DNA of 46,664 nucleotides, counting the filler, from Catajapyx aquilonaris (Eukaryota), in NCBI GenBank assembly GCA_000934665.2. It is 2 parts of 2 records of this genome, joined end to end, with 100 filler letters (N's around TTAATTAATTAA, not from the genome) between each part and the next. Parts side by side here need not be neighbours in the genome. Positions count along the whole stretch, not along the records: positions 26,132 to 46,664 come from JYFJ02006239.1; 1 more part is not named here. One strand, written 5' to 3'. The notes under the pieces were generated by a model. It was given only the letters and a program-made list of their open reading frames with translations. It did not search any database and had not been told where the DNA came from. Both the position numbers and the translations under genes were made by a program. Shown here one piece after another: positions 27,249 through 32,379 of this stretch. Positions within the stretch are counted from its first letter, which is position 1. Each line of letters opens with the position of its first letter.

Positions 27249-30200
27249 TCACTTCCGTTCTTGTGCATTCAGCATCTCATTCCACTTTCCAAAGAGTTCT
27301 GCCTTCTTCTCCTGGGGGATAGCATCTGAAAATGAATCACCAAGAAGGATTGATATGTGATATGTTTCAGGGTTGTGTTTTCCATGAGCCATCAAAATTT
27401 TTAGTGGAAGTTGTTTCTAATAATGGAAGATTTTGATATTTCTGCAAGAAGCAGCAATGCATTACTAAAACAATGGGTGACAGTTGACAGTCTGCTCCAC
27501 CAAACCAGCTTATTGCTACTTAGCAGAGTAGGCCATGGGAATCCAATGGAAGAGAACCTTGTAGAATTTTTATTTCATTTTTCCTAGCAATGTTGGATCA
27601 AGACTGATTTATAGAGCTGCATACTGTTCTGACTAGACATGTAATATAAAGCGGCGCATTAGCAAAAATACGGTAACAATGCGCAGACCCAAACAAACTC
27701 ACTTATGCATGGTAGCGTATGGGGATTCGACATGTCTACATATCTGTGGACGTATGACAGCAAAAATGGTTTCATCAACAGAGAAATTGCATCAAAAAAT
27801 AGTAGATGATCTGGCGCAGGTGCTCTAGTTCGTCCTTTTCCTATTTTCGGCCTGGAAGTGACATTTAGGACGAGTTGAAGTGAATGGAAAACGATGCTTT
27901 AGAAAAGTCCATTTGAATAACATGGCAGTGGCAGAAATCGCGTGAAAATCGGACACATTTCTATGGACGTTTGTCCACAATATTAATGCAATCATGTCCA
28001 GTATGGTATCATTATAAAGGCCAAACCTTTGTGCAGGTGCCCTAGTTCGTGTTTTTCCATATTAACGCCGTGTTTTGCCACAAAAAGATAAAGTTCCCTC
28101 AAAAATGCGCCTACCATATTTTTGCTAGTGCGCCGCCTTAATGGAATGACATTGCAATGCTTGTCCTGCACGTTAAAGCCATTTCTAATCGTTTAACGGT
28201 GTAATAATGATGATACAATGGATGCCCAATATTTTCGACATTAATTTCTATTCCTCATGTTTTAGTGAACTTTAAAAACAAAAAAAAAAAAATTTACGTA
28301 CCCCTTGATGGCCCTCTATGGGCCTTTCGGGGGGTGGCAGACCACCATACAGTTTTCTATTAACTTCAATCTCCGTGCAAGGAATACTAGGATATAGGGT
28401 AGGGAAAGGGATTGTTGGGGAGGGGACACTTGTGCAGGTGCATTGTCCTATGGCTTTTGGGCCATGTGCAGTCCCCCAGGAGGTTAGGTTGCCAGACACC
28501 TCCTTGGTGCAGGTCAGAGACCCTCCCGACGCAGGTGAAAGGAAGTTCCCCAGGCGGGGATCGAACCTGGGGCCTTTCACTCAGCAAGCCGTGACGTTAC
28601 CATCACGGCCACCACACCTCCCCCTTTAGTGAACAATTAGTAACTCTAAAACTCATCCATCATCTACCCTTACCACAAAAATTCAGACAAAAATTGGCTG
28701 GGGTTCCTGGCCTTTCTTATGGTGATTTAAAAAATTTCAAAATAAAATTGTTAATGTCTGCAACACTGGAACAGACAGGTCAAACTGAGTTGCATTTTTT
28801 TTTTTTTTAAATCTGACACTACTATAGGAACAATCCTCCAAAAATTGTGATGGTTCACTACAAATATGATGCTGGAAAACATTCTTCTGCAATTCAACAT
28901 TTGAAAATACCTTTGAGGGCATTAGCAACTCCTGTAACCACAGGAGATGAAGGAGGTGGCACACCTTCCGGCATGAATTGGGATAAGACCTGATCCACTT
29001 TCACATCTTCAATGCCATGTTCATCAACTACTTGCTCAGCGATGCTTCTAAAACGTTGATCCCATTCTAACTCTTGCAGCAACTGGTCAACATCTTTCCT
29101 CATTCTGGGAACAAAATGATTGAACTCTTTCAGGCTGTTGCTCATGGTAGCCACAATATTTGTGATTGTTCAGAGGAGCTGCAACCTTCAATGCCTTCAA
29201 TGAGCTATGATATATTATTATTGGAGATTGGAGATTTTAGTAATATACCAAGAATACAACAGAGTTCGACTCGTGGGGGAAGGAACTGAGGGAGAGGATG
29301 ATCAAGGAGAGGGAGGAGAGAATTGCCAACACAACCAACTGGCCCGACTACAGATCTGTAAAGATAGAGAGAGAAGAAGACCGATATTTGGACAGAGAGA
29401 ACATAAAATTTCTGAAGGTGTTGGCGAAACTAAGATGTGGGACACTGTGCAGGGCTAGCTGATTATGGCTGTCAGAAACGGAGAGGAACTGTTTATTGTG
29501 TGGGGAGGGGGAGGAGAATATGGGGCATATTGTGAGGGATTGTAGGGTAATGAAGGAGGAGAGGAGGAAATGGATACCAGCGGTGGAGGAGATGGAGGAT
29601 GAGGAAGTGTATAGCTTTGTAAAGAATGTAAGAAAAAGGGGTGCTCTATGTAAGTATTTGTACGGGATGGTGAAAAAGAGGAGGGATACAATTTTGGAGA
29701 GACAGGGGGAGGGGTTGAGTGTGAATGGAAATATGTAAATGTAAATGTGTATGCAAATGTAAATGTAAACATGTGAAGGAGGAGGAGGGTCGGCCAAGAG
29801 GCATGCGCTGCAGGCCGATGGTCTAAATAAAGCGCAAAACAAACAAAATACAACAGAGTTCACATGCATGGATTGATGATTTATCCTGGTATCTATTCCG
29901 TCTCCCTATCACCCTGTACTATTGCTTTTTTCATAAAATTATACCAGAGTTGGGTAGTAACTGAGTAGAAATAATGCGTTACTAGTAACTAGTTACTTTT
30001 TGAGTACTTTTCCCGGTAACTTCGTTACTTTTGTGCACAAGTAACTGGTACTTATAACTAGTTACCTTTAAACAGTAACTTTGTAATGAAAGTTACCAAG
30101 TTACTTTTCCGTGCAGGGTTTGAGAAGCACCTATTTTAAAGGGACACTCCACTTAAAAAAAACAAGTTTGGCTCTAAAAATCGGGCAAAAAAATTCTGAA

Positions 30201-31066
30201 ACCGAAGGTACAATCCGTTTTTTTCGCTACGCGGAACGGTAATCCCAGGGCGAGGGGTAAAAGTGGGAAAATTCAAATAGTGCGCTAGAAGCTGGCCGCC
30301 CGCCAGCGACGCCCTCGGGACCTTGGGAACTGGAGGGCTGCTCCCGCCTGCCCCCGCGCTTAGGCCAATCCCAGAGCGGTGCAGCCCTCCAGTTCCCCTG
30401 TTCCCCGCGTGGCAGCACCGATCATTAGCAGACGACACACTTTGACATCTCGCCCTGGGATTACCGTTCCGCATAGCGAAAAACGAATTGCACCGTCAAA
30501 TTCAGGATTTTTGCCCGATTTTTAGATCCAAACTTGTTTTTTGAGTGGAGTGTCCCTTTAACATGCAGATGATTCATTTATTTGGCGACAGTGGGACGGT
30601 TCCCGAGAAGGGGAAAGCCTACAGATGCAAACTTTGAAAAGCAGCTATTATTAAAAGTAAATCGAGGTTGATCATTTTTTTGACCACGGTGTTATGCTGT
30701 ATGATTCGTATTTCAGGGAGAAATGGGGAATCCCCCATCCATCTACAGCAGCGGTGACAGACCACGGAAAAGTAACTTCATGAGTAACTGTAACTGTACC
30801 TGTAACTGTAACTAGTTATTTTTTGGTCAAAGGAACTTGTAACTGTAACTAGTTACTTTTTTGGACTGAATAACTGTAACTGTAACCAGTTACATTCCAA
30901 AAGTAACTTACCCAACTCTGAATTATGCATCAAGAATTTTAATACAGTCATGTAAGGGAATAGGCATAGCTGAACAGCTTGGGTTTGAACATTATCTTAC
31001 TCATCCACTTTTCCTGCCACTCGCATTGCATCCTTCATTTTCTCCAAGGACTCTGGACTAGGTTTC
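27249..31066 (-). CDS. Diverged ENY2/Sus1-like exon set (exons 2', 3', 4'), probably spliced to ENY2 exon 1
   Basis: Exon 2' 31066-31001 (66 nt, KPSPESLEKMKDAMRVAGKVDE). Exon 3' 29104-28911, or 29104-28965 with the alternative donor (MRKDVDQLLQELEWDQRFRSIAEQVVDEHGIEDVKVDQVLSQFMPEG...). Exon 4' 27325-27249 (77 nt, DAIPQEKKAELFGKWNEMLNAQERK*). Lengths of 2' and 4' and all phases equal those of canonical ENY2 exons. Confidence 0.75.
28271..28624 (-). mobile_element. tRNA-derived SINE, family S1, full length with TSD
   Basis: Head GGGGAGGTGTGGTGGCCGTGATGGTAA (A box) and GGTTCGATCC (B box), T-rich tail, 10-bp TSD TTTAGTGAAC at 28261-28270 and 28625-28634. A second copy begins at 46595. Confidence 0.9.
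29268..29846 (+). mobile_element. 5'-truncated non-LTR retrotransposon (3' end of ORF2 plus UTR)
   Basis: LAKLRCG...ERNCLLCGEGEENMGHIVRDC (C-terminal CCHC of a LINE ORF2), one in-frame TGA at 29460, AATAAA plus (CAAA)n tail, 15-bp TSD AATACAACAGAGTTC at 29253-29267 and 29847-29861. Confidence 0.88.
29945..30920. mobile_element. hAT-like non-autonomous element with GTAACT subterminal repeats
   Basis: TIR CAGAGTTGGGTA...TACCCAACTCTG, 8-bp TSD AATTATAC/AATTATGC, many (A)GTAACT/AGTTAC motifs near both ends. Confidence 0.85.
30140..30557. mobile_element. Kolobok-like MITE nested in the hAT element
   Basis: TTAA-AGGGACACTCCAC...GTGGAGTGTCCCT-TTAA, imperfect TIRs longer than 100 bp. Confidence 0.85.
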
Positions 31067-31195
31067 CTGTAGAATAAATTAAAAATCAGATCCATATTAA
31101 TGTGAACATAAAAAAGTCTTTATTTTACACAGCATTCATTTTGCCAATATCAAGACATTTGTAACTGACATTTTCTCATTCTCTTTAGGTAGAAA

Positions 31196-32379
31196 TCAAC
31201 TTTCTATTTGCTGCGCCAGAAATGACTTGATCCGCTGGAGAAGCTCCTTCTTCACTGCGTCTGGAACTAATGCTGAACAGAATGGAAATATTAGGATTCA
31301 CAAACAAATTTTTTCCTGCGTGTACTGAAACTTGTAACTTATAGACCTATATACTGTAGTGTTTTTTTATGTTGTACAGCAAGGGACTTCTGATTAACTG
31401 AGCTCTGCTTCAAAGAGATGTGAATTTGTTTCCTAATGCGCCATGTATTGGGAATAAGGGAATGAAGAATGAAGATTGGGTGGCAATAAGAGTACACATT
31501 TTTGCACCCATTTGTATTTAGTTTGTACCGTACTGTGTTCATAAATAAAAAGAGATCTGCAGATTTGTAAGCATATTCCTAACCTCGTCCTTTTGGTGTG
31601 ATTTCCTCCACAAGATCGTCAACTTTTACATTGCTCAGCCCTTTCTGCTTGACATACTCCTTGCAGTGCAACTTAAGCTGGTCTCTCCAACCACACTCGA
31701 CCAGTCGCGTCCTCAACAACTCACGCAGCCTAAGAATAGTCAACATCGTATTAAAGAGGAGTGCTCACAAGCCCATGATAATTGGTGTTTTAGGACGAAT
31801 TCATGACATTTGAGTGTAGTCAAGTACAGACAAATGGATTGAAAGAATTGCCTTCTTGCTCTCACTACAACCAATTCTCACAAGTTGTGAACACACTTTA
31901 CCAGCTTTAGCAGGTACACTGCACTAATGAGCATATTGGTCACATGCAAACAACAGCTAACTAACTAATAGTAATTTCTTCCTCCGCCTCACCTTTCTTT
32001 CTCACCACTTGCAATTAGGTTCTGATTTATTGCCAGGCTCATCTCGACCTCTTTGCGTCTGCAAATGTCAGTGATGTCAGAAGTGATTATTGGCAAAATG
32101 CTCACTGAAGGTACGTTCTCACAAGTTCAATGCACCTAGAAACGACCTAAAATAAGACCTCCAATGCATTTCTAAGCATGGTGCATCTCGATATGACAGG
32201 GATTTGATCCATCTCCACCATGAAAACATCGAGTGAAACATGTGCCGGTCAGGTTAAATTCTTTGGCGCATAACGAGTCTCTCTGCGAGGAAAATACAGG
32301 AAACGTACCGGTGAGAACGTACCTGAAGTACTTCAAAACAATGAAATCAAACCCGAAAAACCTAAACTTACTCCGCCAT
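31196..32379 (-). CDS. ENY2: ENY2/Sus1 (enhancer of yellow 2), SAGA DUB module and TREX-2 subunit, 98 aa
   Basis: Exons 32379-32372, 32058-31993, 31729-31584, 31272-31196 give [104 protein letters not shown] on the minus strand at 31119-31124. Confidence 0.95.

Follow-up and report, generated by a model that had tools for sequence, protein, structure and literature searches.

ENY2 is the one subunit common to the SAGA deubiquitinase (DUB) module and the TREX-2 mRNA-export complex, and is usually encoded by a single, very conserved gene. We analysed the ENY2 locus of Catajapyx aquilonaris (assembly GCA_000934665.2) within a stretch of 46,664 nucleotides (nt), called the window below, in which three further exons similar to ENY2 exons 2-4 lie behind the gene on the same strand. 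These exons are numbered 2', 3' and 4', and their spliced product is referred to as the variant. An earlier note on the window had described them as a strongly diverged duplicate which apparently shares exon 1 with ENY2. In Drosophila a comparable neighbour, Adhr, is reportedly expressed dicistronically behind Adh, on the Adh promoter.

According to the main text of a 2025 survey (PMC12611072), duplications of e(y)2 among protostomes are reported for Drosophilinae and Manduca sexta only. Drosophila e(y)2b, as described there, evolves faster than E(y)2, binds TREX-2 and stays out of the DUB module; it is helix 1 that admits E(y)2 to this module, and E(y)2b is without it. Besides that paper, our literature searches brought up none on tandem or alternatively spliced ENY2 duplicates of arthropods. 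Two further systems are relevant for the choice of terminal exons. The boxes in intron 4 of Drosophila Nmnat form a stem that is needed for use of the distal acceptor, as described for that gene by Raker et al. (2009, PMC2724269). In the account given by Pan et al. (2018, PMC6191721), the Drosophila genes PGRP-LC, CG42235 and Pip likewise have multi-exon 3' cassettes that are controlled by RNA pairings.

Structure of the duplicated exons

On sequence grounds the exons downstream of ENY2 are a true, diverged duplicate of ENY2 exons, and the block looks as if it has been kept under selection at the protein level. The parts of the parent gene and of the duplicate are listed here.

32379-32372, minus strand: the 8 coding nt of ENY2 exon 1, followed by the donor gtaagt at 32371; proposed as first coding exon of both products
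32058-31993, minus strand: canonical ENY2 exon 2, 66 nt
31729-31584, minus strand: canonical ENY2 exon 3, 146 nt, Pfam EnY2 56.3 bits
31272-31196, minus strand: canonical ENY2 exon 4, coding part, 77 nt including the stop
31124-31119, minus strand: ENY2 poly(A) signal AATAAA, 71 nt past the ENY2 stop, with 52 nt from there to the exon 2' acceptor
31066-31001, minus strand: exon 2', 66 nt, phase 2 at both ends, donor gtaaga, internal in-frame ATG
29104-28965, minus strand: exon 3', short form, 140 nt, donor gtgtgc, Pfam EnY2 19.0 bits, E 0.0018
28911 to 28964, minus strand: optional 54-nt extension of exon 3' (long form 29104-28911, 194 nt, donor gtattt)
27325-27249, minus strand: exon 4', 77 nt, TGA stop at the codon homologous to the ENY2 stop

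The canonical gene encodes a product of 98 amino acids (aa) from coding exons of 8/66/146/77 nt, its introns measure 263-313 nt, and its closest relatives are ENY2 proteins with identities of up to 83% (32 proteins at E<=0.001 among 71 candidates). The coordinates, lengths, phases and splice sites that had been proposed for ENY2 and for exons 2' to 4' were all confirmed. The duplicate exons are 66/140/77 nt long as compared with 66/146/77 nt in ENY2, the difference in exon 3' being 6 nt in frame, and their phases (2/2/1) are the same as in ENY2. The introns of the duplicate span 1.9 and 1.6 kb. Between the ENY2 stop and the exon 2' acceptor there are 129 nt including the ENY2 AATAAA, in agreement with the roughly 130 nt estimated before.

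All exons of the locus have AG acceptors behind pyrimidine-rich tracts and GT donors, and five of the six donor sites listed carry a G at +5, among them the donor of the short exon 3'. The exon 2' acceptor lies at the ancestral position; a branch-point-like CTGAT motif is found 20 nt upstream and is followed by a T-rich tract and CAG. Joined to exon 1, exons 2' to 4' give an in-frame product of 96 aa (short) or 114 aa (long), just as predicted. The 54-nt extension adds 18 residues rich in Pro, Ser and Val; since it is open and in phase, both forms of exon 3' may be used. The frame had been called intact, and indeed only the ENY2-homologous frame is open in each duplicate exon, the other two containing 1-8 stops. 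Inspected by eye, the first ~130 nt past the variant stop contain only variant hexamers, e.g. AATACA and AATATA.

Homology of the variant to ENY2

In a pairwise alignment 22 of 96 positions of the variant and ENY2 are identical (23%) and 44/96 are positive, which bears out the 20-25% identity counted by hand in the earlier note. The Smith-Waterman score is 82, against a mean of 28.2 (standard deviation 5.2) for shuffled sequences, and was reached by none of 5000 shuffles; without the shared first three residues it is 73, a value reached by 1/5000 shuffles. We also built a hidden Markov model (HMM) of our own on the set of 32 ENY2 proteins. With this model the scores are 28.0 bits for the short spliced form (E 1.2e-10, counted for a single sequence) and 24.3 bits for the long one, the short form thus being the better family fit. 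HMM positions 17-101 align collinearly with residues 12-94 of the variant, across all three exons, and none of 1000 shuffles scored above 10.1 bits.

In the comparison with the Pfam EnY2 profile, which the earlier note had suggested as a check, EnY2 (PF10163) is the top family for exon 3' alone, with 19.4 bits and E 0.0014, a score that remains under the cut-off of 27 bits. Exon 4' alone has no Pfam match. Among three PDB matches at E<=10 the best two are human ENY2 (4dhx_B, E 0.095) and Drosophila E(y)2b (9jua_A, E 0.56), both at collinear positions.

Orthologues of the variant were looked for in several collections. An exhaustive phmmer search of 1.84 billion representative proteins found no orthologue and left no accepted match, so that a variant of this kind would escape standard orthologue searches. 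The sole phmmer hit, a 2137-aa protein of about ten weakly matching repeats, was judged spurious, its score being inflated by the repeats. A word-indexed search with exon 3' gave 0 candidates among proteins of 35-112 aa, a metagenome scan matched 599 pattern stretches of which 0 were confirmed, and the ESM Atlas gave no usable match.

Signs of constraint

Of 200000 random triples of genomic segments with the lengths of these exons, 3764 (1.9%) are free of stops in the frame needed. The nucleotide identity between the variant and ENY2 is 31/93 at first, 48/93 at second and 22/93 at third codon positions, i.e. 52% at second and 24% at third positions. Third codon positions are hence at the random level, which indicates that the duplication is old. 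Second codon positions, which set the class of the residue, are the best kept of the three. A hydrophobic residue is kept at 23 of 25 family-conserved hydrophobic columns (background 38%; binomial 2.6e-8), so that the positions lining the partner helix are retained. Also kept are the Trp that is invariant in the family, the segment G-x-x-x-V-x-V-D and, in the last loop, the Pro. The copy appears to be selected, because its frame and splice sites are intact beyond what neutral decay would leave.

The variant differs from ENY2 in its charge. The earlier note had called it more acidic, and this holds: its isoelectric point (pI) is 4.67/4.77 as compared with 8.97 for ENY2, and it is the changed polar positions that make it acidic. 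In the family-invariant Cys-Gly-Trp hinge between helices 2 and 3 the Gly is replaced by Glu, and the Trp is kept. Residues of helix 1 are altered; those ahead of helix 1 are poorly conserved across the family. As helix 1 is kept but altered, the choice of partners may differ from that of ENY2. Single-sequence AlphaFold2 predictions, which are weak evidence, place helices at residues 2-29, 36-43 and 54-63 of the exon 3' piece, at a predicted local distance difference test score (pLDDT) of 59, and at 2-10, 15-29 and 36-43 of the canonical exon 3 piece (pLDDT 75). Both pieces agree in where the later helices end, and the exon 3' piece is predicted without a break at the hinge.

These numbers bear on the view that the block is a non-functional relic, a dead or dying duplicate that is open by chance, with the inverted repeat described below as debris of a rearrangement or a transposon. 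Such a relic would fit with the lack of an annotation, with that of an orthologue in the protein searches, with the absence of a canonical poly(A) signal in the 1449 nt downstream and with the transposons in the introns of the duplicate, which the ENY2 introns do not have. However, although third positions are saturated, the copy has held on to its frame, to the exact lengths of its exons, to five splice sites and to the 23/25 hydrophobic positions. Second-position identity (48/93) exceeds first-position identity (31/93), which is not expected from neutral decay. We regard a relic as highly improbable.

The transposon remnants in the two introns are the following.

~29960-30930, no strand assigned: intron 2', nested elements with inverted repeats, DNA-transposon-like, the inner one at 30133-30564
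29463-29738, plus strand: remnant of a non-LTR (long terminal repeat) retrotransposon open reading frame (ORF) in intron 2', zf-RVT E 0.0011 (below cut-off)
27647-28140, no strand assigned: inverted-repeat element in intron 3', arms of 29 nt, 90%

Of the transposons that had been reported from these introns, the DNA-transposon-like elements were recovered, and a retrotransposon remnant is indicated by the zf-RVT match below the cut-off. The short interspersed element (SINE) remains an identification by eye, as neither ARAGORN nor Rfam had any match in 26500-33500.

An inverted repeat brackets the canonical exons

Canonical exons 2-4 are bracketed by a 46-nt inverted repeat, whose two arms are called Box 1 and Box 2. 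The pair came to light in a test of one preconceived idea, namely that intron 1 has a docking sequence for the stretch ahead of exon 2', and such a sequence is present. These and two further pairings of intron 1 are located as given here.

32059 to 32371, minus strand: ENY2 intron 1, 313 nt, with Box 1, with both arms of hairpin I1 and with the I3 5' arm
32108-32062, minus strand: Box 1, the terminal 47 nt of intron 1, ending 3 nt short of the AG of the exon-2 acceptor, with two branch-point-like CTGAC motifs inside
31174-31129, minus strand: Box 2, in the ENY2 3' untranslated region (3'UTR), starts 22 nt past the stop, its end being 5 nt short of AATAAA and 62 nt short of the exon 2' acceptor
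32311 to 32329, minus strand: 5' arm of hairpin I1, intron 1, contains the 5' splice-site-like CAGGTACGT
32104 to 32122, minus strand: 3' arm of hairpin I1, directly upstream of the Box 1 core
32295 to 32307, minus strand: 5' arm of I3, intron 1, complementary at 12/13 positions (10 contiguous) to the exon 2' acceptor junction
31059 to 31071, minus strand: 3' arm of I3, spanning the exon 2' acceptor

The Box 1/Box 2 duplex has 36 pairs with perfect runs of 13 and 10 nt and an energy of -37.0 kcal/mol, a value reached by none of 738 natural 61-nt windows (minimum -35.4) and by none of 1000 shuffles. The longest exact match to intron 1 is 13 nt here and at most 11 nt in 348 natural 129-nt windows; the same 13-mer was recovered independently by a repeat finder. 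Further copies of the box arms do not occur within the window. When the whole 1.4-kb pre-mRNA segment is folded, the core stem has a pair probability of ~1.0. A first duplex test on the whole segment was weaker, its -58.4 kcal/mol being reached by 2/300 shuffles.

Hairpin I1 comprises 17 pairs over 19 positions, 14 of them exact, with -30.1 kcal/mol. Its 14-bp part (32324-32311 with 32122-32109) likewise has a pair probability of ~1.0 and ends 8 nt from the core stem. Together the two helices bring the exon-1 donor and the exon 2' acceptor within ~125 unpaired nt of each other, as compared with 1305. The 3' arm of I1 resembles the complementary end of U1. I1 could be a sequestered decoy donor, or else its arms could be the ends of a 226-nt miniature inverted-repeat transposable element (MITE). 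The 10-nt exact complement of I3 (32304-32295 with the exon 2' acceptor) was reached by 15 of 1505 natural 30-nt windows; the other four acceptors of the locus have exact complements of 5-7 nt to intron 1. The I3 pairing would form a pseudoknot with the intron-1 hairpin and is absent from the nested fold.

Inverted repeats are common in the window, and this would suit a relic. A neutral 46-nt inverted copy of the duplication's age should, however, also have decayed.

The position of the boxes also bears on a swapping of single exons, in which hybrids such as 1-2-2'-3'-4', 1-2-3'-4' or 1-2-3-4' would be real products. Since the phases are identical, every such hybrid is in frame. A scorpion ENY2-like protein of 125 aa (P0018) moreover has two serial exon-2-like segments before the conserved core; exon duplication in ENY2 may thus have taken place elsewhere in arthropods, and these copies may be alternatives merged by the gene model. 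On the other side, the box pair brackets the whole block of exons 2-4 and not single exons, the ENY2 poly(A) site lies between both blocks, and exons 2', 3' and 4' are similarly diverged, as expected if they work together. Exon-wise swapping is improbable in our view.

A model for the expression of the duplicate

We propose that an ancient tandem duplication copied the coding exons 2-4 of ENY2 and set them directly behind the ENY2 poly(A) signal, where the copy would encode a diverged, acidic ENY2/Sus1-like protein of 96 aa, or of 114 aa with the longer exon 3'. Most likely the block has no promoter of its own and uses the ENY2 transcription unit. In transcripts passing the ENY2 poly(A) site the exon-1 donor (32371) would be joined to the exon 2' acceptor (31067). 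Two nearly complete and mutually exclusive proteins would then depend on a single promoter, a common 5'UTR and the same 8 coding nt. The stem of Box 1 and Box 2 is proposed to mask the branch point and acceptor of exon 2, to loop out exons 2-4, and to bring the exon 2' acceptor to within ~125 nt plus two helices of the exon-1 donor. Read-through of the poly(A) site, the exon 1/exon 2' junction, the function of the stem and a role in SAGA or TREX-2 are all steps that we infer.

The best-supported reading, with chances that are about even, takes the block as an alternative 3' cassette which belongs to the ENY2 unit and shares exon 1. More tentatively, and with chances somewhat short of even, the RNA stem would choose between two complete ENY2-fold proteins by looping out the canonical cassette and allowing the transcript to run beyond its poly(A) site, the acidic one being a second SAGA-DUB/TREX-2 adaptor or a binder of a new partner helix. 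A shared exon 1 is favoured by the exon 2' acceptor at its ancestral position, by the poor donors of the block's own candidate mini-exons, by the box pair and by the I3 match of intron 1 to the exon 2' acceptor. The switch between splicing and polyadenylation around a shared exon 1, as suggested in the earlier note, is strengthened by the box pair and stays a proposal. Its further suggestions, of tissue specificity and of altered partner choice, are speculative.

The exon 2' acceptor has several in-frame upstream donors available to it, namely those of exon 1, of exon 2 and of four ATG...GT candidates in the 3'UTR. The latter, together with the in-frame ATG in exon 2', make the earlier statement that there is no room for a promoter too strong. 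The block could be an ordinary tandem paralogue with its own start in the last exon, the 3'UTR or an intron of ENY2, and either a tiny first exon would be spliced to exon 2' or translation would begin at the ATG inside exon 2'. The best candidate for such a first exon is placed as follows.

31139-31129, minus strand: candidate own mini first exon, 11 coding nt, donor TGT/gtaaaa, followed by a 62-nt intron with AATAAA

The four in-phase ATG...GT combinations extend from 31179 to 31129, an initiator-like TCAGTT was seen by eye at 31168-31163, the ATG of exon 2' is situated where tick ENY2 proteins likewise begin, and family conservation is poor before helix 1. All four donors (TCA/gttaca, AAT/gtcttg, TGT/gtaaaa and GCT/gtgtaa) are, however, weak and have no G at -1 or +5. 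An intron of 62 nt would be far below the size of the ENY2 introns, and an unspliced leader would hold at least four upstream ATGs with short ORFs. Nor does an own start account for the Box 1/Box 2 pair or for the match between intron 1 and the exon 2' acceptor, and the acceptor itself has been retained at its ancestral position. An ordinary paralogue is thus rather unlikely.

The same in-frame ATG, the spacing of 129 nt and the lack of an evident promoter would also be compatible with dicistronic read-through, in which the exon 2' acceptor stays unspliced and the variant is translated from inside exon 2'. Against it, the interval from the ENY2 stop to this ATG holds several further ATGs with short ORFs, a well-formed acceptor would go unused, and the box pair would again find no explanation. 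We consider this very improbable.

A number of results weigh against the cassette with a shared exon 1 and are gathered here. The agreement in frame of exon 1 with exon 2' was passed on by the duplication and does not count as independent evidence, and the model has to skip three well-formed exons as well as a canonical AATAAA. Neither AATAAA nor ATTAAA occurs within the 1449 nt downstream of the variant stop (25800-27248, minus strand). As regards the protein, exon 3' alone stays under the Pfam cut-off, the representative proteins hold no orthologue, and the identities of the variant are not significantly concentrated in the most conserved family columns (699 and 601 of 10000 permutations). 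As regards the box pair, exact inverted matches of 13 nt or more were found in 7 of 31 control regions of 1.4 kb and two such matches in 3/31; most of them have the compact, nested form seen in transposons. In antisense the pair is just as stable (-36.3 vs -37.0 kcal/mol; 34 Watson-Crick and 2 G-U pairs), so that it could be a relic at the DNA level. The distal half of Box 1 finds its partner in intron 3 instead when the whole segment is folded.

Neighbouring genes

A BTB/zinc-finger gene on the plus strand lies head to head with ENY2, its start being ~700 nt upstream. Between the two genes AAGATGGC-type motifs are present in both orientations (32600-32800 and 32372-32385), one of them coinciding with the ENY2 start codon, and a TATAAAA is seen at ~32482. 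The intergenic region may hence contain two kinds of core promoter.

Further away, the window encodes on the minus strand a DNA/RNA non-specific endonuclease (Endonuclease_NS, 68.7 bits; 13210-14194) and an orthologue of dopamine receptor 1 (16861-18627), one exon of which is up to 94% identical to insect proteins. The identity of this exon is 88-94% with insects, 82% with a stomatopod and a springtail, and 74-75% with decapods. These values point to a pancrustacean genome, probably of a hexapod-like lineage. Spliced-leader trans-splicing of an operon, an idea prompted by the spacing of AATAAA and acceptor behind ENY2, was set aside since this exon is closest to insects, from which trans-splicing is not known to have been described. 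A kinesin-5-like gene (Microtub_bind domain at 6271-6981) contains an exact 23-nt inverted repeat (5888-5910 and 6124-6146) which flanks the gap between two coding stretches and is a candidate intron structure. A (GA)n microsatellite of ~550 nt is found at 23280-23830.

Comparison with known systems

The variant resembles the ENY2/Sus1/E(y)2 family (PF10163) in being collinear over its whole length, in exon structure and phases, and in the retained Trp, loop Pro and hydrophobic residues. It differs in that it is only 23% identical, has a pI of 4.7 as compared with 9.0, and has Glu in place of the hinge Gly. Residues of helix 1 that contact NonStop in Drosophila, as given in the main text of PMC12611072, are changed.

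With e(y)2b and the two tandem paralogues of Manduca sexta the variant has in common that all are diverged second ENY2-type proteins of arthropods (PMC12611072). Those proteins come, in the description of that paper, from separate genes, one parental beside a retrocopy and the others on another chromosome, and helix 1 has been lost. In contrast, the copy of C. aquilonaris keeps a helix-1-like exon, lies 129 nt behind ENY2 and is seemingly without a start of its own. The helix loss typical of E(y)2b is not seen: exon 2' retains all of its 66 nt, and its alignment with the helix-1 region takes in the conserved Gly. If the proposed model is true, the locus represents a protostome ENY2 duplication of a type that does not appear in the main text of the 2025 survey (PMC12611072).

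Such a duplication would be a new route for the diversification of the SAGA/TREX-2 hub, inside one transcription unit. The pair Adh/Adhr is reportedly similar in that a tandem duplicate lies close behind its parent and relies on the parent's promoter. There Adhr is said to keep a full reading frame on the shared mRNA, whereas the copy described here is without exon 1 and starts with an acceptor.

Two features of an alternative 3' cassette were found at the locus, namely a proximal poly(A) signal upstream of the distal acceptor and complementary boxes which bracket the proximal acceptor and its cassette. As in Nmnat, the boxes bracket a proximal acceptor and terminal exon, and box 2 is upstream of the signal for polyadenylation (PMC2724269, for that gene); this geometry favours the splicing of exon 1 to exon 2'. 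The loop differs from that of Nmnat in comprising three exons (~935 nt), nearly the whole protein would be swapped, and the function of the boxes is in our case a predicted one. PGRP-LC, CG42235 and Pip, as presented in PMC6191721, share with the locus one common 5' splice site and alternative 3' cassettes, which are here two tandem multi-exon cassettes with a poly(A) signal between them. In these genes the common 5' part is large (PMC6191721), whereas in C. aquilonaris it would be the 5'UTR and 8 coding nt only.

Should the block prove an ordinary gene next to ENY2, or a relic, interest in the locus would be minor. If the model holds, it would be a clean natural case of a nearly whole protein being swapped by an alternative 3' cassette, with a simple switch element. 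The kinds of components are known, that is an ENY2 paralogue and a 3' cassette with RNA boxes; their combination, and a near-complete swap behind an exon of 8 coding nt, is new.

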